DNA from: Pseudomonadales bacterium
Lineage (GTDB): Bacteria; Pseudomonadota; Gammaproteobacteria; Pseudomonadales; DC-out160
Reading direction: 5' to 3'
DNA length: 64,000 bases
Assembly (NCBI GenBank): GCA_019090455.1
Contig: JAHRWA010000054.1
Span: forward strand, 4,506-68,505
Both the position numbers and the translations under genes were made by a program. Under the pieces are notes generated by a model. That model searched no databases and was not told the DNA's origin. It saw only the letters and a program-made list of their open reading frames with translations. This document shows, in pieces, positions 7,155 through 33,847 of this stretch (positions within the stretch are counted from its first letter, which is position 1; the number at the start of each line of letters is the position of its first letter).

Positions 7155-8216
7155 ATGATCGATATTATTCTGAAAGATGAGTTACGGATACCGATGATTA
7201 TTTTACCGGCGCTAAGTCGGTATTATCGAGAGCTTGCTATCGATCCGGGTGAAGGCCTGGCTGTGATTGGAGATGCCTTTGATATCTCTGATATAGAAAA
7301 TCAGTATATTAACGTAGAACAGTTTCAGGCGTTGTTGAGAATTTTTAGAATTCACACTAAAGATGATGCTGTTGGTTTGAGTTTCGGCAAATCGTTCTCT
7401 TTTGAATTTCTCTATGACTTCGAGCTGTTGTTACAAACTGCTAGGGGCCTTGATGAGGTATTGCCATTTGCTGTTAGCCTAATAAATTCAATTAACCCGA
7501 CTTCTGTATTTTCTTGTATTAGAACTGAGTTTGGAGCTGTGGCATATCTTAGAGATAAGATTTCAGATTTGTTGGAGGATAGCGAATCTGCGATGGTCAC
7601 TGATGCCATTTTTTCGCTCTTTCAAGAGATTTGCCAGCGTGTAATAAATTCGGAATATCAAGTGAGAAGCTTAAGTGTTATGCATCGAATTTCGATTGGG
7701 AACATGAAACGGTATAAGGAATGTTTTGACGTTAACGTGAGTCCTGGAAGCCCGGTTAATGCATTGCGGTTCGAATATGTAAAAGGGCAGCACAATGCAG
7801 TTGATCGGTCAGATGAGTTACATGAGCAAGTCATTGAAGCAGTTATGCTGAAGTTAAAAAACTTACAAAATGCGAATGATTTCTCGGCGCAAGTGCTAGC
7901 GTTTATTGAAGGACATGAACAGCCGCTCGAACTTGAAATAAATGAGCTCGCATCCCGGTTAGAAGTGTCTAGACGGACTTTTCAGCGCCGATTGAAAGAT
8001 CTAGGCATAAGTTATCGCTCGCTGATAGATACGGTTATGTTCAGTAGAGCTGAGCAGTTACTTTTGGATGATGAGCTTTCCATCGATAGCGTCGCGACTT
8101 TACTCGGCTATAGTAGCCGCAGGGGTTTGAATAGATTGATTCACCGGCGTTCAGGCGCTTCTCCTAATCATTATCGCCAGACTCTTTTGCGTAAAAAAAA
8201 TGATGAAATATTGTAA
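7155..8216 (+). CDS. AraC/XylS-family transcriptional regulator with an N-terminal ligand-binding-type domain
   Basis: 353 aa. C-terminal double HTH (LASRLEVSRRTFQRRLKDLGISYRSL ... VATLLGYSSRRGLNRLIHRRSGASPNHYR). Sits directly upstream of, and co-directional with, the CuMMO operon. Confidence 0.8.
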   Translation: MIDIILKDELRIPMIILPALSRYYRELAIDPGEGLAVIGDAFDISDIENQYINVEQFQALLRIFRIHTKDDAVGLSFGKSFSFEFLYDFELLLQTARGLDEVLPFAVSLINSINPTSVFSCIRTEFGAVAYLRDKISDLLEDSESAMVTDAIFSLFQEICQRVINSEYQVRSLSVMHRISIGNMKRYKECFDVNVSPGSPVNALRFEYVKGQHNAVDRSDELHEQVIEAVMLKLKNLQNANDFSAQVLAFIEGHEQPLELEINELASRLEVSRRTFQRRLKDLGISYRSLIDTVMFSRAEQLLLDDELSIDSVATLLGYSSRRGLNRLIHRRSGASPNHYRQTLLRKKNDEIL

Positions 8217-8511: not shown

Positions 8512-9360
8512 ATGGACAACGAACTTATAATAAAGCTATTCGAGGTGATCTCAATGACGGAAATGAGCATGGAAAAAGCGGTAGTTGCTCCTTGGAAACT
8601 ATTCGCAACGGTACTGGGCGTGGTTGGTTGCATATTTTTATTATATCGATGGTACCAGCACGAGATGGCATTTAGTGTTGGGCTTGATTATTTTGAGCCT
8701 GAATTCCAAACATACTGGATGAATCTGATGTACACGCAATTGACCATACTGACGATTGGTGGTGCAGCATTTATGGGGTGGCTTTGGTTCACTCGCGAGA
8801 AAGAAGCTGTGCTGGAAATATCCAGGGAAGAAGAGGTATCTCGTTATCTTAAGTTCTTGGGATTGCTGTCAGTGTTTTCCTTATTAGTATGGCTCTCTAC
8901 TAGCTTGTATGCCGAAGCGGATGCGGCTTGGCATCAGGTGACTGTAAGAGATACCGATTTTACACCAACTCATATCCCTCTATTCTATTTTGCTTTGCCT
9001 TGCATGATTATAGCTGGTTGTAGTTTGTTTGTTTGGGGGCACACTCGTTTACCTGATTTGTATGGACGAATATCGCTACCATTTGCGATGACAGTTGGAG
9101 GCCCTATATTGATTATGCCTAATGTTGGTTTCAATGAGTGGGGTCACACTTTTTTCTATGCCGAAGAATTATTCGCAGCTCCGATTCACTGGGGGTTTGT
9201 ATTGTTAGGTTGGTCAATATTCTTTGTTGGCGGCTTTCTGATGCAGATCATTAAACGAATCCATGATTTAGTAGATGGTAATACAGAGTTGCAGCATATG
9301 AATAATGTTGAACCTTTAAATGCACCTAGTTATGGATACGATGTTAAAAAAGCATCGTAA
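8512..9360 (+). CDS. pmoC: Copper membrane monooxygenase subunit C (PmoC/AmoC family)
   Basis: Polytopic membrane ORF. EPEFQTYWMNLMY, DAAWHQVTVRDTDFTPTH (D-x3-H-x12-H) and NEWGHTFFYAEELFAAPIHWGF (N-x3-H-x13-H) are PmoC/AmoC hallmark motifs. Start is ambiguous: ATG 8512, or ATG 8554 preceded by GAGGTG. Confidence 0.9.
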   Translation: MDNELIIKLFEVISMTEMSMEKAVVAPWKLFATVLGVVGCIFLLYRWYQHEMAFSVGLDYFEPEFQTYWMNLMYTQLTILTIGGAAFMGWLWFTREKEAVLEISREEEVSRYLKFLGLLSVFSLLVWLSTSLYAEADAAWHQVTVRDTDFTPTHIPLFYFALPCMIIAGCSLFVWGHTRLPDLYGRISLPFAMTVGGPILIMPNVGFNEWGHTFFYAEELFAAPIHWGFVLLGWSIFFVGGFLMQIIKRIHDLVDGNTELQHMNNVEPLNAPSYGYDVKKAS

Positions 9361-9396
9361 GTAATTAGCAGCAGAAATAAGTTTGATTTTGATTTG

Positions 9397-9441
9397 CGGG
9401 GCTAGGGCCAACTTATAGAACTAAGGGTGGCTCTAGCCCCG
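9397..9441 (+). other. Intercistronic stem-loop between the subunit C and subunit A genes
   Basis: CGGGGCTAGGGCCA (9397-9410) pairs with TGGCTCTAGCCCCG (9428-9441): 14 bp including one G-U, with a 17-nt loop. It is followed only by TTT, so it is not a canonical intrinsic terminator. Confidence 0.45.
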
Positions 9442-9510
9442 TTTGATGTCTATCGATACAAAAAAGACAGATAATAAAAAATTAGCATTAATATTATTAG
9501 GGGAAGTTTT

Positions 9511-10242
9511 ATGGAAAGAATTAGTACAGTGAATGAGAGAAAACTTTTTTTGACTCTCGACATATTGTTAATACCCGTACTGGTTATTCTTTTTATGGGT
9601 GTTTTTAGTTTTCACTTTGCCCTGACCGTAGGAGATTGGGATTATTGGATTGATTGGAGGGATAGACGTTGGTGGCCACTAGTGACCCCTTTATCGTTAA
9701 TCGTACTACCAGGAGTATTTGGCTATCTACTTTGGGATAAACTTCGATGGCCTTTAGGCGGGACGATTACCATATTGGGATTAAGTTCGGCAGCCTGGGT
9801 AAGTCGAGTCTGGAATTTTGAGATATTTGCAGGATTTCCTTTGAATATGGTGACTCCATCTACCTACGTCGGTCTTGGCCTAATGTTAGATGCAACACTT
9901 GTTATAACCAAAAGCTTCATGGTGACGGGGTTGTTTGGTGGGTTTCTATTTGGCTTTTTAATATATCCTTTGAACTGGCCCATTATAGCGCCCTACCATT
10001 TACCTATTGAGATGGATGGTACCTTGATGACTGTCGCAGATGTCATGGGGTACGAGTACATTAGAACGGCTATACCTGAATATGTTCGCATAATTGAATC
10101 CTCCACGTTACGTACTTTTGGTGAGGCTGTTGTTCCTTTGACTGCGGTATTTGCCGGTTTTCTTACGGTATTGACGTATTATCTGTGGGTTTGGGTAGGT
10201 TATTTGACCTCAAAACCGACTTGGATTAAGAAAATAGTATAA
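9511..10242 (+). CDS. pmoA: Copper membrane monooxygenase subunit A (PmoA/AmoA family)
   Basis: 243 aa. GDWDYWIDWRDRRWWPLVTP and NWPIIAPYHLPIEMDGTLMTVADVMGYEYIRTAIPEYVRIIESSTLRTFG align over the full length with remembered PmoA/AmoA sequences. A GGGGAAG RBS lies upstream. Confidence 0.93.
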   Translation: MERISTVNERKLFLTLDILLIPVLVILFMGVFSFHFALTVGDWDYWIDWRDRRWWPLVTPLSLIVLPGVFGYLLWDKLRWPLGGTITILGLSSAAWVSRVWNFEIFAGFPLNMVTPSTYVGLGLMLDATLVITKSFMVTGLFGGFLFGFLIYPLNWPIIAPYHLPIEMDGTLMTVADVMGYEYIRTAIPEYVRIIESSTLRTFGEAVVPLTAVFAGFLTVLTYYLWVWVGYLTSKPTWIKKIV

Positions 10243-10292
10243 AGAAGTTCTAGTAGATTTAGTTCAGCATAACAATAAGATTTATAAATGAT

Positions 10293-11552
10293 TTGAAATT
10301 GGGGCAAAAATTGATGAATGCAAAGAGAAAGAGGCCTGTATCTGCGGTCTTCCTCCTGTTGTTAACGTTATTTACAGTAAATGAAGTAGCGGCTCACGGC
10401 GAACGCGCCCAGCAAGCTGGTATACGTATGAGGACGATACATTTTTTTGATATTGAGATATATCCACGCACTTTGAAAGTTAATGAAGAAATGACGGTTA
10501 AAGGGAAGTTTATTCCTTCTGAAAATTGGCCAGATCATTTAGCTTCTACTGAGGGGACTGCCTTCCTGAATATAGGAGTGCCAGGGCCAAAGTTTATTCG
10601 GCTTTCTTCAAGTGTAAATGGTCAACCGATGATTCGTTCAACTTCTTTTCAGGAAGGGGAATTATACGAATTTGAGATGACGTTAAAAGCTAGAAATGAA
10701 GGGGAATACCACGTACACCCTGTTATTAGTGTGCAGGACGCGGGACCTATAATCGGTCCAGGATATTGGGTCACAGTAGAAACTGGTACGGCCCCATTTG
10801 AGAACCATATAACTACGCTTTTCGGTGAAGAGTTGGATCTTGAAACACATGGTCTGTCGAATACCATATTTTGGTCAAGTCTATGGTTTGTTATAGGGTT
10901 TGCTTGGTTTGGGTATTGGTTGTTTAGATCTAAACTACCTATTATTATGCCACGCTATAAGTTGATCGCGGATGCTAAAGATGCCGATGATATTATAACT
11001 CGGCAAGATCAAATTGCTGGTGGTGTGTGCTTAGCGTTGTGCTTGTCGATCATCGGGTTTGGTTATTTGTGGGCTGAAGATAAATACCCTGTTACAACTC
11101 CATTACAAACAGGAAAGGTAAAAACTCCACTTATAGAGTGGGATAAGCATGCTGTAGCTGCTGAGCTAGTGAAAGCGGAATATCGTATTCCTGGGCGGTC
11201 TTTTAAGGTGGAAGTGAATGTGACTAATACGTTGGAGACACCTGTAAGGCTTGCGGAGTTCACTGCCGGAGGGATAAGGTTTGGCAATCCAAATGTGAGA
11301 GAGTTAAAACCTCAGGATCGACATGATTTGGTGGCAGAAGCGGGCTTGATTGTGGTTAATGAGCAGATAGAGCCTGGTGAAACTAAGTCAGTTGTATTTG
11401 AAGCGAATGACGCTCTTTGGGAAATTCAACGTCTAACGTCATTGATTTACGATCCTGATAGCCGGTTCGGTGGAATGATACAATTTGAGGCAAGAAATGG
11501 TCAACGCTATCCAGTTGAAATAGGTGGGGCGATGCTGCCCTTGTTTAATTGA
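10293..11552 (+). CDS. pmoB: Copper membrane monooxygenase subunit B (PmoB/AmoB family)
   Basis: Signal peptide ...TVNEVAA then HGERAQQAGIRMRTIHFFD; GEYHVHPVISV. Two central TM helices (FWSSLWFVIGFAWFGYWLF, GGVCLALCLSIIGFGYLW) lie between two soluble halves, as in PmoB. Start is TTG 10293 or ATG 10314. Confidence 0.9.
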   Translation: MKLGQKLMNAKRKRPVSAVFLLLLTLFTVNEVAAHGERAQQAGIRMRTIHFFDIEIYPRTLKVNEEMTVKGKFIPSENWPDHLASTEGTAFLNIGVPGPKFIRLSSSVNGQPMIRSTSFQEGELYEFEMTLKARNEGEYHVHPVISVQDAGPIIGPGYWVTVETGTAPFENHITTLFGEELDLETHGLSNTIFWSSLWFVIGFAWFGYWLFRSKLPIIMPRYKLIADAKDADDIITRQDQIAGGVCLALCLSIIGFGYLWAEDKYPVTTPLQTGKVKTPLIEWDKHAVAAELVKAEYRIPGRSFKVEVNVTNTLETPVRLAEFTAGGIRFGNPNVRELKPQDRHDLVAEAGLIVVNEQIEPGETKSVVFEANDALWEIQRLTSLIYDPDSRFGGMIQFEARNGQRYPVEIGGAMLPLFN

Positions 11553-12124
11553 TGTATCGTCTTGTTCTCTTAATCATGAGTTTGATGCCCTCCGTGCTGT
11601 ATGCCCACGGGGGGGTTAGCATGAAGGATGACATGTGCGTGATAAAGTTAGGTAGCTACAAAGCGCACTTCTCGGCGTATATGCCTAAGTTACGGGGGAC
11701 TCAAGAATTTTGTGAGTCCTTTCCTGAAATAGGTGAAGCGATAATTGCTGTTGATTTTGTGAGCAGGGAGTTGCGCGACCAACGTATACAATTTGAGGTG
11801 GTAAAGGACTTTACAGGAAAGGGCGCGAAGGCAACGGGCAAAGATTTATTTGGCGAACACTTAGCTGAATATACGAAAGCGATAATACATCAGGATGTGG
11901 GTTCGTTTCGTAAATCTGGAACACTTAACTTTCCGGTTAATTTAGAAGAAAAAGGCTGGTACATAGGTGTGATGCGAATTATCTCAGATGATAATTCCGT
12001 GATCGCAGAGAGTGTCTTTCCGTTTGAAGTAGAGCCCTCTACAATTTGGCGTTATTTTGTGCTGCTATCGTTTGTAGTCGTGTTAGTAGGTGGCTTATTC
12101 GTGGTTGTTGGTTATAAAAAATGA
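11552..12124 (+). CDS. Secreted, C-terminally membrane-anchored protein of unknown function, in the PmoD/AmoD position of the CuMMO operon
   Basis: ATG 11552 overlaps the subunit B stop (TGATG). Signal peptide MYRLVLLIMSLMPSVLYA, then a mature sequence starting HGGVSMKDDMCVIK, a ~140-aa soluble domain, the TM helix WRYFVLLSFVVVLVGGLFVVVGY, and KK. Confidence 0.7.
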   Translation: MYRLVLLIMSLMPSVLYAHGGVSMKDDMCVIKLGSYKAHFSAYMPKLRGTQEFCESFPEIGEAIIAVDFVSRELRDQRIQFEVVKDFTGKGAKATGKDLFGEHLAEYTKAIIHQDVGSFRKSGTLNFPVNLEEKGWYIGVMRIISDDNSVIAESVFPFEVEPSTIWRYFVLLSFVVVLVGGLFVVVGYKK

Positions 12125-12759
12125 ATGAAGAGCGGCTAGCATGAAGTCGCTCAGACTTATTAAAGCAATAAAGTAACTGTGTTCCTTCTAAATACAATGA
12201 TTCTTTATGAAAATGCTGAACTCAAGCACTTGAAGAGTCATTTAATTCCCTTGCAGTATATAACGCCCCTTCTCCCTAATTTGTAGTGCTATTGCTACTC
12301 GAGATTTTCCTCTTCGAATTTAGAGTTTTAATATGATGTTTGTCTTATTTTATATCGGCAACACATTTTCCGATTTACTATATATTGTGCAAATGAACTT
12401 ACCTCACCTCGACCAATACCTCGGTAATTCTGTAGTGCATTTGCATAATGGTCAGTGATTTAACAATGAGAACGAAAAGCGTTTTTCAATTTTTCCGTGA
12501 TGTAAATTAGCTAAGTTTGGTAAATTTAATCTAAAGGGCATTGATTAAATTTTGGATCTTTATTGATTTTGAGTATGTAATACTGGCCAAGAATTCCTTT
12601 TAGTTCTGATTCACCTTAAATTAGAAATCAATGCAGATTATAACTTGAACTAATTCAAAGGGGTTTGTCGACAAGAACGAAAAAACGGTGCTTATCTTCA
12701 CTTCCCATGATTAAGCGTTTACTGCTATTGTTGCGCCTAGTCTATTTCAAGGAGATGTT

Positions 12760-13626
12760 ATGGATTCGTTACAGTATTTCGCCCCGACAACGCTACAAGA
12801 AGCTGTGCAGTTATTAGAGACTAACAGTGGATGCCGAATAATGGCCGGTGGCACTGACTTAATTGTACAAATGCACATCGGTACGGCATCGCCTCCTGCG
12901 ATTGTCGATATAAAGAAGATTCCCGAATTAAATAAACTTCAACTAAGTGATTCTGATTTACTGTTGGGGCCTGCTGTATCAGGCGCCTCTATTACAGAAC
13001 AAGCAGATATCGCAGCAATATATCCAGGATTAGTGGAAGCAATAGACCTGATTGGTTCGACACAAGTGCAAGGTCGATGTTCTGTAGGCGGCAATTTATG
13101 TAACGCATCTCCCGCAGCAGATACAGTCCCCTCTTTAATAGTTAACAATGCAGTTTGTGAAATTCACGGCGCTTCTGGAGTTCGAGAAGTAGCGGCGGAG
13201 TCGTTTAATCTTGGGCCGGGTAAAAACTGTTTGTCAGAAGGTGAAATTCTATCGTTGATTCGATTGCCCAAGCCAGTGCCAGGTAGTGCAGATGCATATT
13301 TGCGTTTTATCCCTCGAACTGAAATGGATATTGCAGTTGTTGGAGCGGCAGTTTCTGTCACCATCGGAGGTGATGGGGTTTGCAGCGCTGCTAGAGTGGC
13401 AATTGGAGCTGTGGCACCCACTGCATTGTTAGTACCTGAAGCCGCGAAGGCGTTAGTTGGTACAGATTTAAATGATCAAGCGTTGGAAAATGCTGGTGCA
13501 GCTGCGAGTCAAGCAGCGAGTCCCATTTCGGATAAAAGAGGTACTGCGGAATACCGCATTAAGGTAGTTGGGGTATTAACGAGAAGAGCGGCTGCAATTG
13601 CTAAGCAACGAGCCTTACAAAACTAA
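12760..13626 (+). CDS. Molybdenum hydroxylase FAD-binding (medium, CoxM/XdhB-like) subunit
   Basis: 288 aa. FAPTTLQEAVQLL...IMAGGTDLIVQM and SPISDKRGTAEYR are typical of the FAD-binding PCMH / CO-dehydrogenase flavoprotein domains. Confidence 0.85.
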   Translation: MDSLQYFAPTTLQEAVQLLETNSGCRIMAGGTDLIVQMHIGTASPPAIVDIKKIPELNKLQLSDSDLLLGPAVSGASITEQADIAAIYPGLVEAIDLIGSTQVQGRCSVGGNLCNASPAADTVPSLIVNNAVCEIHGASGVREVAAESFNLGPGKNCLSEGEILSLIRLPKPVPGSADAYLRFIPRTEMDIAVVGAAVSVTIGGDGVCSAARVAIGAVAPTALLVPEAAKALVGTDLNDQALENAGAAASQAASPISDKRGTAEYRIKVVGVLTRRAAAIAKQRALQN

Positions 13627-13659
13627 TTCAACGGTAGATTTTAAAGAGGGATTTTATTG

Positions 13660-14136
13660 ATGGCGACTCATGTGAAAACCACTATAAACAATGAAGCGGT
13701 GGAATTTCTTTGCGAACCCCACGAATCTTTGTCCTCCGTATTGAGAGAGAGGCTTCATCTTACGGGGACAAAAGAAGGTTGTACTACGGGTGATTGCGGA
13801 GCTTGCTCGGTGATGTTAGATGATCGATTAGTCTGTTCTTGTTTAGTGCTTGGAGTAGAAACTGAAGGAATGAGCATTGATACGGTGGAAGGTGTTGCCA
13901 AGGCAGATAAATTACATCCAATACAGGAAAAGCTGTTAGAGCATGCGGCATTGCAATGTGGAATTTGTACGCCAGGGATCGTCGTTTCAGCAAAAGCGTT
14001 GTTAGAGAAAAAGGCTGACCCTACTGAAGAGGAAGTCCGTTTCTGGCTTGCCGGAAACCTATGTCGTTGTACTGGGTACGACAAGATAATACGCGCGGTA
14101 TTGGATGCCGCCTCAGTATTAAGAGAGGAGGCTTGA
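13660..14136 (+). CDS. Molybdenum hydroxylase [2Fe-2S] small (CoxS-like) subunit
   Basis: Cys clusters GCTTGDCGACSV and QCGICTPG...NLCRCTGY. ATG 13660 lies one codon inside the TTG-started ORF. Confidence 0.9.
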   Translation: MATHVKTTINNEAVEFLCEPHESLSSVLRERLHLTGTKEGCTTGDCGACSVMLDDRLVCSCLVLGVETEGMSIDTVEGVAKADKLHPIQEKLLEHAALQCGICTPGIVVSAKALLEKKADPTEEEVRFWLAGNLCRCTGYDKIIRAVLDAASVLREEA

Positions 14137-14138
14137 TA

Positions 14139-16418
14139 ATGAGTGGACAAACTTCTAGTGAATATAAGTATATCGGTACACGCTCTATACGTCCTGATGG
14201 TGCAGATAAAGTAACAGGAAGAGCCAATTATGGGGCTGATTTCTTTTTGCCAGGAATGGTGCATGGGAAGATACTTCGAAGCCCTTTAGCCCATGCAAAA
14301 ATACTCTCCATAGATGTATCTGCAGCGCTTGCGATGCCAGGTGTTCTGTCGATTGCAACCTCAGAAGATTTGCCTGATATGAATGCGGGTACTGAATCTG
14401 CCGGAGAAGGGGAAGTCGATTTTTATGATTTCTCATGTAATGTTCTTGCAAGAGAAAAAGTATTATATCACGGCCAAGCAGTTGCAGCAGTTGCCGCTAC
14501 TTCAGAGGCAATAGCTCGATCGGCCCTTGACAAGATCGTCGTTGATTATGAAGAGCTCACTCCTGTCTTAGATCTTTTGGGCGCACAAAAATCCGATTCA
14601 CCCCTGCTTCATAAGAATCAAACCACTGAAGGCCCTAAAGGTAAGGGTAAGACACCTTCAAATATTGCAAAACAGATGATGTTAGCAAGAGGTAATGTTG
14701 ATGAAGGTTTTTCTGAAGCTGATGTAGTGGTAGAGAAGACCTTCATTTCACCAATAGTTCACCAGGGGTATATTGAGCCCCATGCTTGTGTGGTGAGAAC
14801 CAACGAATCAAATCAAATAGATGTTTGGTGTAGCTCTCAGGGTCACTTCATGGTCCGCTCTTTTATGGCGAGATTGTTGGCCATGGATGTGTCTAATATA
14901 AAAGTGACACCTCTAGAAATTGGTGGTGGATTTGGTGGTAAGACGGTTATTTATTTGGAGCCAGTTGCCGCCATCTTGTCCCGAAAAGCGGGTCGTCCTG
15001 TTAAAATGGTGATGGATCGTGAAGAAGTGTTTAGAGCAACGGGACCAGGCTCCTCAAGTATTGTGAAAGTGAAGGTGGGGGCCAAGAGTGACGGCAGGAT
15101 TGTCGCTATGGAAGCTGATATAACACTTAATGCCGGTGCGTTTAAAGGTTCTCCAATGATGCCGTCAATGATGTGTGTCTTTACTCCGTATACCTGCCCA
15201 AATATGAAAGTAACTGGAAAGGATGTTGTAACAAATACCCCCAAAGTGGCAGCATATCGAGCACCAGGAGCTCCCCAGTCTCATTTAGCGGCAGAGTGCG
15301 TTGTCAACGAAATAGCTAAACGTCTGAATATTGACCCTATTGATTTGAGATTGCTTAATGCGGTTGATGAAGGTAGTCCGACTATTTATGGGCCGAAATT
15401 TAAAGCAATTGGTTTAAAAGCCGCTCTTACCGAAGCAAGGAGTCACCCGCACTATGCGTCTGCATTATCTGATAATCAGGGGCGTGGGGTAGCATGCGGC
15501 TTCTGGTTTAATGTTGGTTTGCAGTCCAGTGCCACAATTAATATAACAGAGAGTGGAAAAGCGGTTGTAATCACAGGTAATCCCGACATTGGTGGGTCTC
15601 GAGCTTCCATGGCTCTAATGGCTGCTGAATCCTTGGGTATTCCATTGGATCAAATAAAACCGATAATTGGTGATACTGAATCGGTTGGGTATAACGATGT
15701 CACTGGTGGTAGTCGAACGACATTTGCATCAGGTGGTGCAGTGATCAAGGCCGCAGAAAACCTTATTCAAGATTTGAAGAGGCGGGCAGCTAAACTGATG
15801 GATATAGATGTTGAGCTAGTGCAGTGGATTGATGGGCAAGCAGTTGCTCCCGCTGATCTAGATAAAAAGCCTCTTTCTTTGGCACGCCTTGCAAGAAAAG
15901 CAGGTGCTACCGGTGGACCACTAACGGCTACAGCAACGCAGACTGCGAGAGGAGCAGGTCCGAGTTTTGCGGTTAATATTATTGATGTAGAAGTGGATAA
16001 AGAGACCGGTAGTGTAGATGTAAAACGAGTTACTGTTTTACAAGACGCAGGTAAAGCAATACATCCTAGCTATGTGGAAGGTCAAATGCAGGGAGGAGCT
16101 GTTCAAGGAATTGGGTGGGCACTCAACGAAGAGTTTGTCTACAACGAAAAAGGTGTTATGGAAAACCCTGGTTTTTTAGATTATCGAATCCCCTTGGCTT
16201 CTGACTTACCTATGATTGACACTGTAATTATTGAAGTTCCAAATCCAGGTCATCCTTATGGGGTAAGAGGAGTCGGTGAAGCACCCATTTGTCCACCAAT
16301 GGCTGCCGTGACATCAGCAGTTAATGATGCTATTGGTTGTGGAGCTGATTTTCAATTGACTGAGTTGCCATTGAGCCCGGTGAAGGTGCTAGACGCTGCT
16401 GAAAAGTTGATGGGCTAA
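14139..16418 (+). CDS. Molybdopterin-binding large subunit of a xanthine dehydrogenase/aldehyde oxidoreductase-family enzyme
   Basis: 759 aa from ATG 14139 (RBS AGAGGAGG; 2 nt after the small-subunit stop). Family-typical GRANYGADF, HQGYIEPHA, GGGFGGK and AAYRAPGAPQ. The loop is neither VAYRCSFR nor AYRGAGR, so it is not a CODH. Confidence 0.88.
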   Translation: MSGQTSSEYKYIGTRSIRPDGADKVTGRANYGADFFLPGMVHGKILRSPLAHAKILSIDVSAALAMPGVLSIATSEDLPDMNAGTESAGEGEVDFYDFSCNVLAREKVLYHGQAVAAVAATSEAIARSALDKIVVDYEELTPVLDLLGAQKSDSPLLHKNQTTEGPKGKGKTPSNIAKQMMLARGNVDEGFSEADVVVEKTFISPIVHQGYIEPHACVVRTNESNQIDVWCSSQGHFMVRSFMARLLAMDVSNIKVTPLEIGGGFGGKTVIYLEPVAAILSRKAGRPVKMVMDREEVFRATGPGSSSIVKVKVGAKSDGRIVAMEADITLNAGAFKGSPMMPSMMCVFTPYTCPNMKVTGKDVVTNTPKVAAYRAPGAPQSHLAAECVVNEIAKRLNIDPIDLRLLNAVDEGSPTIYGPKFKAIGLKAALTEARSHPHYASALSDNQGRGVACGFWFNVGLQSSATINITESGKAVVITGNPDIGGSRASMALMAAESLGIPLDQIKPIIGDTESVGYNDVTGGSRTTFASGGAVIKAAENLIQDLKRRAAKLMDIDVELVQWIDGQAVAPADLDKKPLSLARLARKAGATGGPLTATATQTARGAGPSFAVNIIDVEVDKETGSVDVKRVTVLQDAGKAIHPSYVEGQMQGGAVQGIGWALNEEFVYNEKGVMENPGFLDYRIPLASDLPMIDTVIIEVPNPGHPYGVRGVGEAPICPPMAAVTSAVNDAIGCGADFQLTELPLSPVKVLDAAEKLMG

Positions 16419-16469
16419 TAGCTCTAGGGTTTATGTTCGATGTGTTGAATATCGATGCTGGGTTTTCAT

Positions 16470-16715
16470 ATGGTGAAAATTATATTTGCCTCCGCTATGG
16501 AACAGTACACTAGAGGCGAAAAAGAAATAAGAATTAATGTAACGACATATCGACAAGCCTGTGAGCTACTAATGAGAGAGTTTCCTCTGCTAAATAAAGA
16601 AACTCTTTCTGAATTTTCAGTGGCAATAGATGATGAAATAATACATGAGCCATTGTTGGAGTCATTTGAACTGAATAGTGTGGTGTTCTTTGTTCCTAAA
16701 ATAGCGGCAGGTTGA
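16470..16715 (+). CDS. Putative MoaD/ThiS-like beta-grasp small protein (C-terminus ...KIAAG)
   Basis: 81 aa from ATG 16470. MVKIIFASAMEQYTRGEKEIRI... and ...SVVFFVPKIAAG resemble the MoaD termini (MIKVLFFA... / ...FFPPVTGG) by eye. Sits immediately after the Mo-enzyme genes. Confidence 0.45.
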   Translation: MVKIIFASAMEQYTRGEKEIRINVTTYRQACELLMREFPLLNKETLSEFSVAIDDEIIHEPLLESFELNSVVFFVPKIAAG

Positions 16716-16786: not shown

Positions 16787-17917
16787 ATGAGACATTGTTT
16801 TACGGATGAGCACGAGCAGTTTAGAGAATTTGTTCGAAAGTTCATGAGTACAAATTCAGATGCGATAGCAGTTCGAAGAGTGATGGAGACTGAAGCGGGA
16901 TATGACGCTGATGTTTGGGGTAATTTGTCTGAATCGTTAGGGTTGCCTGGTGTACATATACCCGAAAAATTCGGTGGTCAAGGTTTCGGCCCAGTGGAGC
17001 TTTGCATTGCTTTAGAAGAAATGGGGCGATCACTTCTTTGTGCTCCTTTTTTTGGATCCTCCGTTATGGCAACCACGGCCATATTAAATGCGGGCTCAAT
17101 CAGTGACAAAGAAAAGCTACTACCTGACCTTGCAGCGGGAAAATTGGTGGCCTCATTAGCCATTGCTGAAGAATCAGGTCAATGGGAAGCCTCAGATATA
17201 GAAATGACTGCCATAGAAGCTGGTGGCACTTACCGATTAAGTGGTGAAAAGAAATTCGTATTAGATGGTCATTCTTCTGATTTGATTGTTGTGGTTGCTC
17301 GTGTACCAGGTTCTAGTGGTGAAGATGGGATTTCCTTTTTTACTGTTAAGGGTGATGCTGCTGGATTGGGTAGACGTTTACTCAATACTATTGATGAAAC
17401 TCGAAAACTGGCAGTGTTACAGTTTGATAGCGTAGAAGCTACACCGTTAGGTGAAGTTGGTGCCGGATCAAAAGCACTCGAAAAAACCTTGGTGCTCTCC
17501 TATGTGGCTCTTGCTAACGAGATGATGGGTGGTGCACAAAAACTGTTAGAAAGTGCGATAGAGTATGCGCAAATGCGAGTTCAATTTGGACGAGCAATCG
17601 GTTCTTTCCAATCCATGAAGCATAAGTTTGCAGATTTACTGATGGATGTAGAGTTAGCCAAAACCACGGCTTATTATGCTGCAGAAGCTGCTGAAGATGA
17701 GGCCGATGATTTAGTTGCAGTGGCGTCGATGGCAAAAGCATATGCGTCAGATACTTATTATAAGGTGGCTGCAGCTTGTATACAGGTTCATGGTGGTATT
17801 GGATTTACTTGGGAAAATGACACTCACCTGTATTTTAAACGGGCTAAGAGCTCCGAGGTGTTTCTCGGCACGCCAGCGTTGCACCGGGATCGTCTGATAA
17901 CAAATTGGAATGCCTAA
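16787..17917 (+). CDS. Acyl-CoA dehydrogenase family protein (short member of an adjacent pair)
   Basis: 376 aa. ACAD N-terminal, middle and C-terminal layout; YAQMRVQFGRAIGSFQSMKHKFADL; QVHGGIGFTWENDTHLYFKRAK. Confidence 0.85.
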   Translation: MRHCFTDEHEQFREFVRKFMSTNSDAIAVRRVMETEAGYDADVWGNLSESLGLPGVHIPEKFGGQGFGPVELCIALEEMGRSLLCAPFFGSSVMATTAILNAGSISDKEKLLPDLAAGKLVASLAIAEESGQWEASDIEMTAIEAGGTYRLSGEKKFVLDGHSSDLIVVVARVPGSSGEDGISFFTVKGDAAGLGRRLLNTIDETRKLAVLQFDSVEATPLGEVGAGSKALEKTLVLSYVALANEMMGGAQKLLESAIEYAQMRVQFGRAIGSFQSMKHKFADLLMDVELAKTTAYYAAEAAEDEADDLVAVASMAKAYASDTYYKVAAACIQVHGGIGFTWENDTHLYFKRAKSSEVFLGTPALHRDRLITNWNA

Positions 17918-17972
17918 CAGTTGCTTCGATTTGTGGGGTTAGGGAAAATGGAATTTAGGTTAGGAGATAATA

Positions 17973-19235
17973 ATGACAGATGTGAGTGAAGAGTCCATTC
18001 GTTCCGAAGTGAAGGCTTGGCTAGAAGAAAACTGGAATGCTGATTTGGGCTTGGTTGAGTGGCGCAGCCTTCTTGCCGAGTCTGGATGGGGGACACCTAG
18101 CTGGCCTAAGCAATGGTATGGGAGAGGCCTCTCTGCTAAATTATCTTCAGCCGTGTTGGATGAAATTCGTCAGTTTGGGGCAATCGGTGCTGCCGATTCC
18201 GGTGTAAGGATGTTAGCGTCAGCCACGTTGATGGAGCACGCCACTGATTACCAGAAAGATAAGTTATTACACAGAATAATTACAGGGGAGGATTCTTGGT
18301 GTCAGTTGTTTAGTGAACCTGGAAGTGGGTCCGATCTTGCGGGTTTAACAACTCGAGCGGATTTGGACGGTGATAACTGGATTATCAATGGTCAGAAGGT
18401 CTGGACTACAAGCGCCCATCATGCGAATTACGGTTTATTATTAGCGAGAACCGATTGGGATGTTCCTAAGCATCAAGGTATTTCTTATTTCGTTTTAGAT
18501 GTTACTCAGCCCGGTGTGGAGGTGCGTCCATTGCGACAAATGAATGGGCATGCATCCTTCAATGAAGTTTTTATGACCGATGCGGTTGTACCAGCGAATA
18601 TGCTTGTTGGGAAACTGAATGGCGGTTGGCAGGTCGGAATGACCACGCTTTCCCATGAACGTCGATTAGCCGATGGTTTGCGACCGATTGGTGGTAGTGG
18701 CGCGAAAAAAGCGAAGGGGAAAATATTTAGCGAGCTCGCTGCTGAAGTTAAAGTTGCTCAAGAACCCTACCGTTGGTACCCCCAGCGTGCTGGACGTCCA
18801 GATTTAACGGTATCGCGAGCGAGAGATACTGGCGCTCTCGAAGATCCAGTGATACGACAAGAGGTTGCTAAAGCGCTCACAATTCACCAGGCTAGTCAGT
18901 GGACGGCTCGACGAGCACGACAAGCACAGAGGCTAGGGCGACCTCCGGGACCTGAAGGTTCGCTAGGAAAATTAGCTGCTAGTAATGTAGCGAGGGCAGC
19001 CGCGTTGGCACATACGCTTACCAGTGGAGCGGATTCTATGTTGAAGGGAGAAGACGGCCCCAAAGACGGAATCATTGCTGAAATTTTGCTTTCAGTTCCT
19101 GCGGTATCTATCGCTGGTGGCACAGATGAAATACAAAGAAATATTATTTCTGAGCGAGTGTTAGGTCTTCCAAAAGAACCTAGAACTGATGCCGATGGCC
19201 CCTTTAAGGATGTTCCCAGAAATATTGTGAAATAA
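17973..19235 (+). CDS. Acyl-CoA dehydrogenase family protein (long member of an adjacent pair)
   Basis: 420 aa. WCQLFSEPGSGSDLAGL, INGQKVWTTSAHHANY and the C-terminal IAGGTDEIQRNIISERVLGLPKEP. Confidence 0.85.
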   Translation: MTDVSEESIRSEVKAWLEENWNADLGLVEWRSLLAESGWGTPSWPKQWYGRGLSAKLSSAVLDEIRQFGAIGAADSGVRMLASATLMEHATDYQKDKLLHRIITGEDSWCQLFSEPGSGSDLAGLTTRADLDGDNWIINGQKVWTTSAHHANYGLLLARTDWDVPKHQGISYFVLDVTQPGVEVRPLRQMNGHASFNEVFMTDAVVPANMLVGKLNGGWQVGMTTLSHERRLADGLRPIGGSGAKKAKGKIFSELAAEVKVAQEPYRWYPQRAGRPDLTVSRARDTGALEDPVIRQEVAKALTIHQASQWTARRARQAQRLGRPPGPEGSLGKLAASNVARAAALAHTLTSGADSMLKGEDGPKDGIIAEILLSVPAVSIAGGTDEIQRNIISERVLGLPKEPRTDADGPFKDVPRNIVK

Positions 19236-19274: not shown

Positions 19275-19336
19275 CTCATTGAGAGATTAAACCAAACTAA
19301 ATAGAGCTATTTAGTTTGGTTTAATCTCTCAATGAG
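19275..19336. terminator. 29-bp perfect inverted repeat (4-nt spacer) between convergent genes; probable bidirectional terminator
   Basis: CTCATTGAGAGATTAAACCAAACTAAATA (19275-19303) is the exact reverse complement of 19308-19336. The right arm is the last 9 codons plus TA of the stop of the minus-strand ORF 19307-20830. Confidence 0.6.
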
Positions 19337-20830
19337 TTCTTCGAAGTCACTATCGATTTTGAGGGAAGATGAAGAGTTTGTTAAAATTAGGTTTGAAGAA
19401 TCAATCACCAGTTTTAGTAATTTATTTTTAACTTTACCTTCTATTGTAAGAGGTGCTAGAGCGCCTTTGTAATCCGAAATGAGTTGTTCTGAAACCTGTC
19501 TAACCTCTTTTATATGCTTTTTGTAATTCCCATTTAAGGAGTCTAAAGTACTTTTTGTTGTTTTAGTTAACAGGCGAAACCTATCGCTTTCGTTTTTTTG
19601 TGCAATTTTTGCATCGATCATACCGATGACTGAATCGAGGGTTAAGGATAGAGTTTGCAAATTATCTCGTAAGCGATCTAGAGTTTCAGAATCTTCTATA
19701 GCCGCTGCGCTGACGCATAACTTGGCTTTTTCACCATGTAATAAATAGAGTTCATCGTGAATAGATAGTCTCCCATCTGCTTCTTGACTCCATATGCTAC
19801 TTTCGCCATTTAAACCAAGTTCATCCTTACTGCAAAAAAAGAGCGGATTCTTGCCGTTGAATATTAGCAGCGCTGCATCCGTATTCATCGATTTTGTCAG
19901 TGAAAATAATTTATTCGATACTTCTTCTTGTGTATTGCATTTGTTGCACTCGGTGATAAATAGAAGAATTGCTCCTAAATCAGCACAGTTCTTCATAAAG
20001 CCAAAAACCATTTCCGTAGTTTGATTGAGCTCAGTTTCAAGGCCATCTATTTTATTTTGTTTTTCATCCAAAATGCCCGCATCTTCATTTGAACTTTGTT
20101 TAACAGTTGATTCCACCTTTGAAGAACTACCTTTCTCCTTCAGCGTATTATTCTCTTGAATAAGTAATTCTACTCTTTCCTCCAATGCTTTTAACTGTTC
20201 ATTGGAAGAACTTTGCGTATCTTGGAGAGACTTTAAAGTCCTCAACTGTAATTGGGCAGCACTATTGTCGCTACTATCTAGCTCGTTGAGTTCTTCGGTA
20301 TCTGTGATTAATTGAGTCGTTAAATTCGATTGTTGGCGCATCTCATCATTTAACCCACTGAAGAGTGAGCTATAGCTATTGTTTGTCTGTGTCGTAGCTG
20401 GAGTTTCTATAAGTGGCGAAGAGGCCGGAGATGATGAGTTCAGTGCGTCGGTTTTGAGTTTCTCCAACTGATCATAGGTTTCAAAAAATAATTGTTTGAA
20501 TTTTTCTAGGTTTTTTATTCTTTGATTGAAATTGTCAATAATGTTCGAATCTGGTTTTGCGAGAGTCTGAGTACCGGTGTCTTGTGCGCTCATTAGACTT
20601 AGGATGTCTACTAGACCAACGCCCAACATGGCCCAATCCGTGTAAGGATTATCGTCTTCCTTTAAGGCTGCAATTTCCAGTTTTAGATATGAGGACCGTA
20701 TAAACGAGGCTTTTTGTAATAATGGACTTTCCGAAAGTGATGCGTAATCCGACTTGGATTGAGGGCATCTATCTTCGCCAAGTATTAGTTCTTTTTCAAA
20801 AAAAGCTCTTATAATCTTGTCGCTAGACAT
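19307..20830 (-). CDS. Hypothetical 507-aa protein with a central Ser/Gln/Asn-rich coiled-coil region
   Basis: Long ORF with no signal peptide or TM helix. Heptad-like segment LQLRTLKSLQDTQSSSNEQLKALEERVELLIQENNTLKEK. I recognise no family motif. Confidence 0.55.
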   Translation of the reverse strand: MSSDKIIRAFFEKELILGEDRCPQSKSDYASLSESPLLQKASFIRSSYLKLEIAALKEDDNPYTDWAMLGVGLVDILSLMSAQDTGTQTLAKPDSNIIDNFNQRIKNLEKFKQLFFETYDQLEKLKTDALNSSSPASSPLIETPATTQTNNSYSSLFSGLNDEMRQQSNLTTQLITDTEELNELDSSDNSAAQLQLRTLKSLQDTQSSSNEQLKALEERVELLIQENNTLKEKGSSSKVESTVKQSSNEDAGILDEKQNKIDGLETELNQTTEMVFGFMKNCADLGAILLFITECNKCNTQEEVSNKLFSLTKSMNTDAALLIFNGKNPLFFCSKDELGLNGESSIWSQEADGRLSIHDELYLLHGEKAKLCVSAAAIEDSETLDRLRDNLQTLSLTLDSVIGMIDAKIAQKNESDRFRLLTKTTKSTLDSLNGNYKKHIKEVRQVSEQLISDYKGALAPLTIEGKVKNKLLKLVIDSSNLILTNSSSSLKIDSDFEELIERLNQTK

Positions 20831-23420: not shown

Positions 23421-23795
23421 TATTTGACTCCTTGTCTTCCTTGGTTTTTTGGATTTATGGATTTATGGATTTATTAAAAATTAAGCACCTTACGTCGATG
23501 ATTTATTTACACTGAGAATATACTAGCGTATTCATCGTAGCTTATGCTAGTGAGAATGGAGGAAGAATGAGGCTTCTTGAAAGTAAGGGCTATCGGAAGC
23601 ACTGATGTAGTGACTTTGAAATCCTGAATTACTTGATAGAAAATAAATAGACATTAAAAAAACTTCTCATTGAATAGGCAGGGGAGTATCTTGAAAGCAC
23701 ATGAATTCACTACCAGAAAGTAGAAAATAATTTGAGTAAAATTTCCTGTCTAGTGAAACGATAAATTTGGCTTATCAATGAAAAAGGGAGAAGTG

Positions 23796-24899
23796 ATGAA
23801 AGCTAAGGCAGCGGTATTTCGAGAAAAAGGCGTAGAGTTAAAAATAGAAGAAGTGGAAATTGATAATCCACAAGCCAATGAAGTGCTGATAAGAACTGTA
23901 GCCTGCGGGGTATGTCACAGTGATTTACATTTCGTTAAAGGGTCAATTCTTGGGCCCGTACCGACTATTCCTGGGCATGAACCTGCTGGAGTCGTTGAAG
24001 CAGTGGGCTCGGCAGTCAGATCTGTCGCCGTTGGCGATCATGTCATAGCCTGTACATCGATGTTTTGTGGACAATGTAAGCAGTGTCAATTAGGGCGGCC
24101 TTATTTGTGTGCTGATAAAAGAGCGACTCAACGGAAAAAAGGGGATACACCTAGGATTTCATTGGATGGAAAACCTTTAGCTCAGTTCGCCGACTTGTCT
24201 GCTTTTTGTGAAAAAATGTTAGTGCACGAAACGGCAGTGGTAAAGATAGATGATGACATACCTCTAGATAGTGCGGCTTTGGTCGGCTGTGCGGTGACAA
24301 CTGGAGTGGGTGCTGCTTTAAATACCGCGCGTGTAAAGCCTGGGTCGACTGTCGCTATTTTTGGGGCAGGGGGGATTGGTGTTTCTATTATTCAAGGTGC
24401 TCGTATAGCGGGTGCGAAACAAATTATTGTAATAGATTTAGTGCCCGAGAAATTGGAGGTTGCTCGTAAATTTGGTGCGACTCATACAATACTAGGTGGG
24501 CCAGATAGCCCTGATGGGGACCCTGTTAAGGCGATAAAGAAACTGAGTCGGGGTGGTGTTGACTATGCATTCGATGCCGTTGGGCTCACCCAGCTGTCAC
24601 AGCAATGTTTCTATGCATTAGCGCCACGTGGATTGGCCATCATCGTTGGTGCAATTCCTCCTGGCCAAAAGCTCGAATTGGAGCCCGGACATTTTTATGT
24701 GGAGAAGTCGATAATCGGGTGCTTTATGGGGTCTAACCGTTTTCATATTGATGCGTTGGATTACCTTGATCTATATAAGCAGGAGAGGTTAGATTTGGAT
24801 TCTATGATTTCAGAGCGTATGCCTCTTGAAAATATCAATGAAGCGTTCAACATGATGGATGGCGGGAAGGTTACGCGAACGGTAATTACTTTCGATTAA
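23796..24899 (+). CDS. Zinc-dependent alcohol dehydrogenase (medium-chain dehydrogenase/reductase)
   Basis: GVCHSDLH, GHEPAGVVEAVG, a structural-Zn Cys cluster CGQCKQCQLGRPYLC, and the Rossmann motif GAGGIGVSIIQGA. ATG 23796 follows AGGGAGAAG. Confidence 0.88.
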   Translation: MKAKAAVFREKGVELKIEEVEIDNPQANEVLIRTVACGVCHSDLHFVKGSILGPVPTIPGHEPAGVVEAVGSAVRSVAVGDHVIACTSMFCGQCKQCQLGRPYLCADKRATQRKKGDTPRISLDGKPLAQFADLSAFCEKMLVHETAVVKIDDDIPLDSAALVGCAVTTGVGAALNTARVKPGSTVAIFGAGGIGVSIIQGARIAGAKQIIVIDLVPEKLEVARKFGATHTILGGPDSPDGDPVKAIKKLSRGGVDYAFDAVGLTQLSQQCFYALAPRGLAIIVGAIPPGQKLELEPGHFYVEKSIIGCFMGSNRFHIDALDYLDLYKQERLDLDSMISERMPLENINEAFNMMDGGKVTRTVITFD

Positions 24900-32935: not shown

Positions 32936-33847
32936 GTGACGTTTACTTCGAAGTTATTAGGCAATATTGATTTGTCATTGTTAGTGACGTTTCAAATGGT
33001 ACTCGCAGAAAAAAATGCGACTAAAGCGGCTCAGAAGCTGGGACTGACTCAGGGTGCCGTTAGTAAACAAATTTCCAAATTAGAGAGAATAACGGGGCTT
33101 GAGTTATTTCTGCGAAAAAACAATGGTCTTCAGCCTACAGCCAGCGCTGATGAGCTAGGGGATGCCGTTCATACGGCATTGGGTGCTCTACTTGGTGTGT
33201 TGGACCAACAAGAATATAATTATCAAAGTGATGCCGTTAAGGTGAAAATTGGTGCAACAGATTATTTTTCTTCGTTTATCTATCCCAGCTTTATTGATTA
33301 TTTGGAGAGTATAAATGCTGCCATTCACATTGAGATTATTCCTATTCCTTGTCGACTGGACACGGAGGCCTTTACAGAAAATGATCTGAGGAGGCTTCTA
33401 GTGGGTGGTACAGTGGATTTGCTGATATATCACGATGGAGCAGCATTGCAAAATTCAAAATCTCAACAGCTTATCTCCGATCCCTGGTTCCTAGTGGGTG
33501 GGGAGTATTCAGATTTAGCGACAGATTCTATAGTACAAAATACAAGTTTAAAGTACATCAGTGCAGGGCCGTTACCTGTGGATTTGATTAAAGAATACGG
33601 CACACAAGTATTTTCATACACCGGTTATTATAGTGCTCTATTTGACACGGTTGCCAAATCGAATGTTGTTGGCATTGGTCCGTCAAAAGTGTTTGATTTT
33701 AATAATCCCACGATTGCTAGCCGAGCATTAAAAATTGAGAACGCTAAACCCTTTCAGCTATCCCAATTTTGGAATCCTCAACGTTCAGAAGATCGTAGTT
33801 TGAAGTTTATTCGTAGTTTGATTTGGAATTATTGTAGTGAATTATGA
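32936..33847 (+). CDS. LysR-family transcriptional regulator
   Basis: N-terminal wHTH LLVTFQMVLAEKNATKAAQKLGLTQGAVSKQISKLERITGLELF, followed by a ~200-aa substrate-binding-type domain. Confidence 0.82.
   Translation: MTFTSKLLGNIDLSLLVTFQMVLAEKNATKAAQKLGLTQGAVSKQISKLERITGLELFLRKNNGLQPTASADELGDAVHTALGALLGVLDQQEYNYQSDAVKVKIGATDYFSSFIYPSFIDYLESINAAIHIEIIPIPCRLDTEAFTENDLRRLLVGGTVDLLIYHDGAALQNSKSQQLISDPWFLVGGEYSDLATDSIVQNTSLKYISAGPLPVDLIKEYGTQVFSYTGYYSALFDTVAKSNVVGIGPSKVFDFNNPTIASRALKIENAKPFQLSQFWNPQRSEDRSLKFIRSLIWNYCSEL

Follow-up and report, generated by a model that had tools for sequence, protein, structure and literature searches.

The stretch of DNA analysed here, 64,000 nucleotides from the assembly of a Pseudomonadales bacterium (GCA_019090455.1, contig JAHRWA010000054.1, positions 4,506 to 68,505 of the forward strand; hereafter “the window”), carries an operon of the copper membrane monooxygenase (CuMMO) type on its plus strand, at positions 8512-12124. 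The operon, xmoCABD, consists of four intact, full-length open reading frames (ORFs) in the order C-A-B-D (Table 1). The Pfam matches of the first three products span nearly the full models and lie well above the gathering scores. The best matches among solved structures are subunit C of ammonia monooxygenase (AMO) for XmoC (8e-59), and PmoA and PmoB of the particulate methane monooxygenase (pMMO) of Methylococcus capsulatus for XmoA (3e-62) and XmoB (8e-100), respectively. With three subunit families encoded together, the products are, by sequence, members of the CuMMO superfamily.

Subunits, copper ligands and the fourth gene

For xmoC, the ATG at 8554 (product of 268 aa) is the probable start: a Shine-Dalgarno sequence, GAGGTG, lies 6 nt on its 5' side, and both the gene call in one assembly and the gene of an orthologue described below begin at this position. 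For xmoB, an alternative TTG start at 10293 would yield a product of 419 aa; gene callers take the shorter form.

The metal ligands were read by aligned position against the M. capsulatus chains, with residues of subunit B given in 419-aa numbering. In XmoC, D137/H141/H154 correspond to D156/H160/H173 of the CuC site (spacing D-x3-H-x12-H), and N208/H212/H226 to N227/H231/H245 of the CuD site (spacing N-x3-H-x13-H). The predicted signal peptide of XmoB ends in EVAA↓HGERAQ, and H35, which immediately follows the cleavage point, matches H33 of the CuB histidine brace, with H140 and H142 at the positions of H137 and H139 and H50 at that of H48. Identical CuB, CuC and CuD ligands, the C-A-B gene order and homology over the full length of the subunits (E 1e-56 to 1e-100) are thus shared with the pMMO of M. 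capsulatus Bath (1yew/3rgb/7ev9) and with bacterial AMO (9cl6, 9leg, 9pxf). One position differs: His72 of M. capsulatus is replaced by Ile, which leaves the bis-His (second periplasmic) site incomplete. The three subunits would accordingly be expected to form a pMMO/AMO-type copper monooxygenase in the membrane, in which B provides the histidine-brace CuB site through its periplasmic domain and C provides CuC and CuD.

An earlier reading of the window, made from the letters and their translations without database searches (the sequence-only reading), had described three consecutive plus-strand genes of the PmoC, PmoA and PmoB families, the CuC and CuD spacings in subunit C, and a signal peptide ending in AA followed by the CuB histidines and the His48 position in subunit B. 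All of this is borne out by the Pfam matches and the aligned positions. The same reading took the operon to comprise three genes, however, and missed xmoD.

The start of xmoD overlaps the stop of xmoB (TGATG), which points to translational coupling. Its product has no Pfam or NCBIfam match, and in every relative fetched first, a gene for 190-207 aa that likewise lacks a Pfam match is found at the equivalent place. The products of these genes are mutually homologous, and their family profile matches the structure of PmoD (PDB 6cpd) at E 1.6e-19. An AlphaFold model of XmoD, with a mean predicted local distance difference test (pLDDT) score of 83, finds the same structure as its top fold match in Foldseek (6cpd_A, E 1.7e-9, target template modelling score 0.80), with CrdA and CopC, both periplasmic copper proteins, as weaker hits. 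XmoD is predicted to begin with a signal peptide and to end in a transmembrane helix, with a periplasmic cupredoxin-like beta-sandwich domain in between, as judged from a hydrophobic N-terminus ending in LYA↓HGG, a hydrophobic C-terminal stretch, and helices at residues 2-16 and 165-189 of the model. In GenBank, the protein is listed from an internal Met as a 167-aa “hypothetical protein KUG82_14385”, whereby the signal peptide and the invariant His19 are lost.

A homologue of xmoD lies 3' of the B gene in 82 of the fetched loci. Among the 71 unique homologues from all fetched loci, H19, D27, C29, H39, C54 and the stretch QEFCE are practically invariant, which gives the family motif (A/G)↓HGGV..DD.C-x9-H...Y.P..R..QEFCE..P; the two cysteines, C29 and C54, are conserved in 71 of the 72 aligned sequences. 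The copper motif of XmoD belongs to the Cx9HxnC class (C29-x9-H39...C54), as do those of all 71 homologues, and the CuA-forming Cx7MxHxnC set of residues is absent. With PmoD of Methylocystis sp. Rockwell (6cpd; PMC6189053), XmoD shares the cupredoxin-like periplasmic domain, the two invariant cysteines, the signal peptide, the C-terminal transmembrane helix and the placement of its gene after that of subunit B. It differs from this protein in overall sequence (about 20% identity), in lacking the Met49 ligand of the Cx7MxHxnC motif, and in having an invariant His at the predicted mature N-terminus. Proteins of the Cx9HxnC class bind copper, but a CuA-like dimer site as in the Cx7MxH class is not formed (Fisher et al. 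2018, PMC6189053), and XmoD, lacking Met49, would be expected to behave likewise. By homology, XmoD is a membrane-anchored periplasmic copper protein of the PmoD type, most likely with a role in copper delivery or assembly (PMC6189053). The invariant His at its predicted mature N-terminus, which is universal in the sampled non-methane, non-ammonia proteobacterial clades, also invites the hypothesis of a histidine brace, on which residues 18-26 of the model, with pLDDT values below 50, are uninformative.

Table 1. Position, strand and supporting evidence of the xmoCABD operon and of further features of the window.
Feature	Position	Strand	Size and evidence
AraC-family regulator	7155-8216	+	Pfam HTH_18, Arabinose_bd; 295 nt 5' of xmoC
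xmoC (PmoC/AmoC family)	8512-9360	+	longest ORF 282 aa; Pfam AmoC 9.6e-75
RNA hairpin in C-A spacer	9396-9442	+	15-bp stem plus inner 4-bp stem; spacer 150 nt
xmoA (PmoA/AmoA family)	9511-10242	+	243 aa; Pfam AMO 1.8e-78
xmoB (PmoB/AmoB family)	10314-11552	+	412 aa from ATG 10314; Pfam Monooxygenase_B 1.6e-123
xmoD (PmoD/AmoD homologue)	11552-12124	+	190 aa; profile match to 6cpd and fold match
Three-subunit molybdenum hydroxylase	12760-16418	+	FAD subunit 12760-13626; 2Fe-2S subunit 13657-14136; Mo subunit 14139-16418
Acyl-CoA dehydrogenase pair	16787-19235	+	376 and 420 aa; Pfam acyl-CoA dehydrogenase domains; 82% and 90% identity to the syntenic pair in NORP220 contig L092
Zn-dependent alcohol dehydrogenase	23778-24899	+	Pfam ADH_N, ADH_zinc_N; candidate second step
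Acyl-CoA synthetase	27609-29246	-	NCBIfam PRK07798, 633 bits (cut-off 543)
SCP-x thiolase adjoining DUF35/ChsH2-type protein	50793-52472	-	Pfam and NCBIfam scans
CYP153-family P450	56293-57573	+	3rwl (CYP153A7), E 8.9e-148, residues 21-423

Relatives, orthologue and phylogenetic position

Despite their intact ligands, the subunits are clearly diverged from the canonical enzymes: identity to M. capsulatus is 42% for A, 42% for B and 44% for C, and XmoC is 43% identical to AmoC of 9cl6. The divergence proposed in the sequence-only reading thus holds, whereas its estimate that roughly half of the PmoA positions match was slightly too high. Subunits A and C also fall below the cut-offs of the NCBIfam models for either enzyme. 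XmoA scores 254.7 against TIGR03080 (cut-off 318.15) and 271.1 against NF041557 AmoA_BACT (cut-off 290), and XmoC scores 245.3 against TIGR03078 (cut-off 280.6) and 273.5 against NF041641 AmoC_BACT (cut-off 319). By these models, strict equivalence to pMMO and strict equivalence to AMO both fail for A and C.

The exact sequence is already public in GenBank under a generic name: MBV1882819.1, from a metagenome-assembled genome (MAG) labelled “Pseudomonadales bacterium”, matches the xmoA product at 100% identity. After this self-match, the matches of XmoA begin with a short contig at 80% and continue at 60-72% with Panacagrimonas, Solimonas aquatica, Nevskia, Sinimarinibacterium and Hydrogenophaga/Polaromonas. 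Overall, the nearest group is the xmoCABD clade of Nevskiales, Burkholderiales and marine Pseudomonadales (55-72% identity). A scan of one genome per species with an alignment of subunit A as query retrieved 80 loci; a single-protein query with subunit B gave no match. When all four proteins were compared over the 80 loci, one contig of the marine Pseudomonadales MAG NORP220, L016, stood out (C 69%, A 70%, B 68%, D 57%), the remaining loci showing 44-59% identity in B and 34-48% in D. The succession of C, A, B and a pmoD-like gene recurs in the relatives' loci L005-L011.

A neighbour-joining tree of subunits A and B (Kimura distances, 74 taxa, 623 columns, 100 bootstraps, M. capsulatus pMMO as outgroup) pairs the operon of the window with NORP220 contig L016 at 100% bootstrap. 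This pair is basal in a 34-taxon clade with 96% support, which further contains the CuMMOs of Nevskiales and of Polaromonas, Rhodoferax and Hydrogenophaga. The sister of this clade is a group of marine Pseudomonadales, Thiotrichaceae and Ca. Macondimonas, and the Porticoccaceae/Ca. Reddybacter enzymes form a separate clade, the split being 100% supported. With the xmoCABD clusters of Polaromonas/Rhodoferax/Hydrogenophaga and of Nevskiales (Solimonas aquatica, PMC6215863), the operon shares the C-A-B-D order, a Cx9H-type PmoD directly after B, a heterotrophic host, and genes for alcohol, aldehyde and acyl-CoA metabolism nearby; identities to these clusters are 61-72% for A, 47-55% for B and 34-48% for D. 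The pHMO operons of Porticoccaceae B045/Ca. Reddybacter (bioRxiv 10.1101/2022.11.07.515388) and of Cycloclasticus likewise have the order C-A-B-D and the same class of PmoD, and their hosts are marine gammaproteobacterial hydrocarbon degraders that are similarly rich in acyl-CoA dehydrogenases (ACADs) and have a single P450. Membership in either group can nevertheless be rejected, given identities in subunit A of 48-52% to Porticoccaceae and 49% to Cycloclasticus, besides the separate clade of the former. Among the kin suggested in the sequence-only reading, Cycloclasticus is thereby dismissed, and actinobacterial and Haliea sequences, which lie outside the comparison, are not among the named matches. 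Its central proposal, a CuMMO for hydrocarbons other than methane, agrees with the separate, supported clade, with the scores of A and C under the equivalog cut-offs, and with the catabolic context of the operon.

The true orthologue of the operon was found through a search with PmoD, on a further contig of NORP220 (GCA_016765265.1, L092) and on a matching metagenome contig (L093). Identities are 85% for C, 87% for A, 76% for B and 77% for D, and the gene order downstream is likewise the same: the FAD, FeS and Mo subunits of a molybdenum hydroxylase (81-91%) are followed by a small ORF, by a pair of ACADs (82% and 90%) and, on the opposite strand, by a protein of about 500 aa. The two genomes represent separate species-level lineages, with about 75-78% nucleotide identity where they can be aligned. 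They further differ in two respects: in NORP220, an alpha/beta-hydrolase gene in opposite orientation intervenes between xmoD and the molybdenum hydroxylase, and no end of an AraC gene is visible 5' of C, where the window has one. Contig L016, the tree partner of the operon in the window, carries a paralogue of the orthologous operon.

Many single genomes were found to hold two or three divergent CuMMO operons, with subunits A that are 55-87% identical to that of the window: NORP220 (L092/L093, L016, L072), NORP120 (L051, L066, L067), ETDI82, UBA3067, CTOTU26803, both Thiotrichaceae MAGs, NORP74 and Panacagrimonas SAW216. This suggests paralogues that differ in substrate or regulation. At seven loci of the Ca. 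Macondimonas type (L053, L056, L058, L060, L062, L063 and L064), the genes read A-B-D, and no subunit C was detected in the fetched flank 5' of A, which implies that the order or location of C differs there.

The comparison with the orthologue also bears on the question whether the operon is in use at all. Its nonsynonymous divergence (dN) from NORP220 is 0.09-0.16 for C, A, B and D (0.15 for D) and 0.07-0.16 across all seven genes compared. Synonymous sites are saturated, so that no synonymous rate can be estimated and dN alone is given; low dN together with saturated synonymous sites indicates purifying selection on all seven genes. That the operon has no present function, being a relic in decay or without expression or else a chimera of the assembly, is hardly tenable as an explanation, even though the source is a MAG and no sigma-70 promoter or intrinsic terminator rises above background. 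Against it stand, besides the selection, the four intact, full-length ORFs with every ligand conserved, a GC content of the operon that equals that of the surrounding window, and the recovery of the identical locus in at least four independent assemblies from several samples.

A second alternative is that the operon encodes a cryptic methane or ammonia monooxygenase, and that the host is either a methanotroph or nitrifier not recognised as such or a heterotroph in which these substrates are co-oxidised. All metal ligands of pMMO and AMO are intact, subunit B exceeds two cut-offs that A and C do not reach in their counterparts (see below), and a PmoD homologue is present, a protein that occurs mainly in methane and ammonia oxidisers (PMC6189053); moreover, the view of the genome spans 64 kb. 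Yet the identity to pMMO and AMO is only 42-44%, the clade is a separate one whose named members (Solimonas, Panacagrimonas, Polaromonas, Rhodoferax) are heterotrophs, and XmoD is of the Cx9H class, not of the CuA-forming Cx7MxH class of pmo and amo operons. Scans with Pfam and NCBIfam covered all ORFs of the window of at least 150 aa and smaller ORFs in the gaps. As the sequence-only reading had stated, genes for methanol oxidation, hydroxylamine oxidation and C1 assimilation are absent from the window: none of the scanned ORFs has domains of a pyrroloquinoline quinone (PQQ) dehydrogenase, hydroxylamine oxidoreductase, or the ribulose monophosphate or serine cycle, and genes for PQQ methanol dehydrogenase, hydroxylamine oxidoreductase or either cycle are equally lacking beside the operons of relatives. 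At the Polaromonas/Hydrogenophaga-type loci L010 and L011, the PQQ-dependent alcohol dehydrogenase carries a cytochrome c domain, and we take it to be a type II quinohaemoprotein alcohol dehydrogenase. Identities, cut-offs and the A+B tree show no nesting of the subunits inside pMMO or AMO, and no methanotrophic or nitrifying pathway genes were seen in the 64 kb. A role in methane or ammonia oxidation thus appears improbable.

Genomic neighbourhood and putative substrate

Downstream of the operon, a spacer of 635 nt (12125-12759), which is AT-rich (34% GC) and contains no convincing ORF, separates xmoD from the genes of the molybdenum hydroxylase. The three subunits of this enzyme match the Pfam families FAD_binding_5/CO_deh_flav_C, Fer2_2 and Ald_Xan_dh_C/MoCoBD_1/2, and it is a candidate aldehyde oxidoreductase that might act downstream of the monooxygenase step. 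Its adjacency to the operon is confined to the window and the NORP220 lineage and is absent beside all other relatives' operons. These adjoin instead CopC/CopD-cytochrome c, multicopper oxidase or PQQ-dependent alcohol dehydrogenase genes, besides genes for aldehyde dehydrogenase, glucose-methanol-choline (GMC) oxidoreductase and acyl-CoA ligase. In the window, no CopC, CopD or multicopper oxidase was found, small ORFs included; the place beside the operon is taken by the molybdenum hydroxylase and a pair of ACADs. Between the large subunit of the molybdenum hydroxylase and the first ACAD lies an 86-aa ORF (16455-16715, plus strand) without family match, which is called in other assemblies and has a counterpart of 72 aa at the equivalent place in L092.

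The window contains exactly six ACADs in three adjacent pairs (16787-19235, 42385-44729, and 53574-55861 on the minus strand). For the pair next to the operon, the one pair scanned against NCBIfam, the best matches are pimD_small (170 bits) and pimC_large (194 bits), both far under cut-off. Together with the SCP-x thiolase and its DUF35 neighbour, the ACAD pairs hint that the acyl-CoAs entering beta-oxidation are branched, cyclic or dicarboxylic and not those of plain fatty acids. The Zn-dependent alcohol dehydrogenase stays under the cut-offs of the models for class III/formaldehyde dehydrogenases, and the acyl-CoA synthetase passes its own. The CYP153-family protein also matches 8b2p, an “alkane hydroxylase” (about 1e-139), and 5fyf (about 1e-136), and is predicted to be a second, independent alkane-activating enzyme beside the CuMMO. 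All of the catabolic genes listed in the sequence-only reading (CYP153, Zn-dependent alcohol dehydrogenase, molybdenum enzyme, six ACADs and acyl-CoA synthetase) were thus recovered.

Taken together, the operon probably encodes a functional hydrocarbon monooxygenase with short-chain alkanes as its most likely substrates, a reading to which we assign a probability of roughly 0.6. The host is a marine heterotrophic gammaproteobacterium in which the enzyme most likely hydroxylates a hydrocarbon, with C2-C4 alkanes as leading candidates because of the clade. The alcohol product might then be converted by an alcohol dehydrogenase to the aldehyde and further to the acid, possibly by the adjacent molybdenum hydroxylase, and the acid could enter beta-oxidation after activation by the acyl-CoA synthetase. 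This proposal for the substrate draws on clade membership and on the genes for alcohol, aldehyde and acyl-CoA oxidation around the operon, both here and in relatives. The betaproteobacterial members of the clade are the CuMMOs of “alkane-utilizing Betaproteobacteria”, in the words of the title of Rochman et al. 2020 (ISME J 14:714), cited in PMC8630023 and PMC9213486.

Several points weigh against this reading of a short-chain alkane monooxygenase. Reportedly, the 2020 work of Rochman and co-workers linked the CuMMOs to ethane and propane and excluded methane assimilation by means of stable isotope probing and reverse transcription PCR on enrichments, not by enzymology. The CuMMOs of the clade are still classed as being of unknown function (PMC6215863, PMC8630023). 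Subunit B scores above the NCBIfam cut-offs of AmoB_BACT (484 versus 336) and of CH4_NH3mon_ox_B, TIGR03079 (414.5 versus 394.9). M. capsulatus pMMO is the only outgroup of the tree, and AMO, Pxm, Haliea, Cycloclasticus and actinobacterial enzymes lie outside it. The absence of methanol and hydroxylamine dehydrogenase genes refers to the 64-kb window. The molybdenum hydroxylase reaches no NCBIfam equivalog cut-off, and the hydrolase gene on the opposite strand between xmoD and the molybdenum hydroxylase in NORP220 makes co-transcription of the two unlikely. Finally, scans for consensus sigma-70 promoters and intrinsic terminators performed no better than on shuffled sequences.

The neighbourhood can also be read in favour of the same enzyme acting on a substrate other than a gaseous n-alkane, such as a ketone, an alkene, or a hydrocarbon that is larger, cyclic or branched, for instance a methylcycloalkane, as proposed for the pHMO of Porticoccaceae B045/Ca. 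Reddybacter. In that case, the acids to be handled by the molybdenum hydroxylase and the PimCD-like ACAD pair would be cyclic, branched or dicarboxylic. The best matches of the paired ACADs in the window are to PimD/PimC, IpdE2 and cyclohexane-carboxyl-CoA dehydrogenases. There are also SCP-x thiolases with DUF35/ChsH2, a family III CoA-transferase, BD-FAE esterases and a SnoaL protein, a repertoire that resembles that of B045 (bioRxiv 10.1101/2022.11.07.515388). The block of molybdenum hydroxylase and ACADs beside the operon is kept in this lineage only, and substrate promiscuity is known for CuMMOs (PMC6215863), acetone being oxidised by one homologue of pMMO (PMC8630023). However, every NCBIfam match of an ACAD lies far under cut-off, the operon falls outside the Porticoccaceae clade, and in B045 the assignment to pHMO is itself a hypothesis, with the P450 as an alternative. 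In addition, the CYP153 of the window could serve the larger substrates, which would leave the CuMMO with the small ones. A substrate of this kind is the less likely possibility.

A more far-reaching and rather doubtful idea is that the basal marine lineage has recruited the CuMMO for a substrate class new to the family (cyclic, branched or medium-chain). Two enzymes encoded beside the operon, the molybdenum-dependent aldehyde oxidoreductase and a heteromeric, PimCD-like acyl-CoA dehydrogenase, might in this case channel the product, and the N-terminal His of the Cx9H-type PmoD might form a histidine-brace copper site that loads or activates the enzyme. The lineage is known from few metagenomes, North Pond-type crustal-aquifer samples included.

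Regulation may involve the AraC-family protein encoded 5' of xmoC, a candidate by virtue of its adjacency to the operon; QhpR and CypR are its weak matches in NCBIfam. As a conserved partner of the operon it was rejected: it is not visible 5' of the orthologue in L093, and the AraC proteins at L005 and L006 share only the helix-turn-helix domain with it. The hairpin in the spacer between xmoC and xmoA has a free energy of -35.9 kcal/mol (z -6.1; none of 200 shuffled sequences was as stable). At the same place in L093, a hairpin retains the outer CGGGG/CCCCG pairs and differs in the inner ones, and the spacers of L016 and L009 contain hairpins as well. Stem-loops between amoC and amoA are discussed as processing or stability elements, and the hairpin is a candidate element for mRNA processing, stability or attenuation. 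Scans for Rfam families and tRNAs found none in the 64-kb window.

Further genes complete the picture of the window. Upstream lie genes for a methyl-accepting chemotaxis protein and a resistance-nodulation-division (RND) efflux pump. Elsewhere, there are a luciferase-like oxidoreductase, two amidohydrolases, several short-chain dehydrogenases/reductases, a thioesterase, the SnoaL protein, two SCP-x-type thiolases (one of them with the DUF35/ChsH2 partner), the family III CoA-transferase and two BD-FAE esterases. Amid the catabolic genes, a 7TMR-DISM hybrid histidine kinase (34758-37568, minus strand) and a response-regulator protein (33837-34703, plus strand) are possible sensors for the catabolic gene set. 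The end of the block conserved with NORP220 is marked by a 507-aa ORF (19307-20830, minus strand) that is rich in Ser, Glu and Leu, has no match in Pfam, NCBIfam or the PDB, and is 49% identical and syntenic in NORP220 (L092, 8691-10187). A role as a hydrocarbon uptake protein was rejected for this ORF, which has no signal peptide, shows coiled-coil and low-complexity character, and matches no family or structure.

Meaning for the CuMMO family

To our knowledge, CuMMOs are the only copper enzymes that activate methane and ammonia, and it is the non-canonical members of the family that decide on the consumption of small hydrocarbons in the sea and the subsurface. The clade to which the operon belongs has been recognised since 2018-2020 (PMC6215863; Rochman et al. 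2020, cited in PMC8630023); the locus adds to it and leaves the knowledge of the CuMMO family unchanged. The locus also illustrates how automatic annotation misleads in this clade, with subunit B scoring above the AmoB equivalog cut-off and PmoD entered as a hypothetical protein in truncated form. As a result, metagenome surveys can overestimate the numbers of methanotrophs or nitrifiers.

What makes the locus of interest is its basal position, the lineage-specific neighbourhood of molybdenum hydroxylase and ACAD genes, the co-resident CYP153 and the universally conserved PmoD of the Cx9H class. As a well-resolved basal marine branch of the alkane-associated xmoCABD clade, with a conserved neighbourhood of its own and a CYP153 in the same window, it is a reasonable target for work on substrate range and for the design of xmoA probes.

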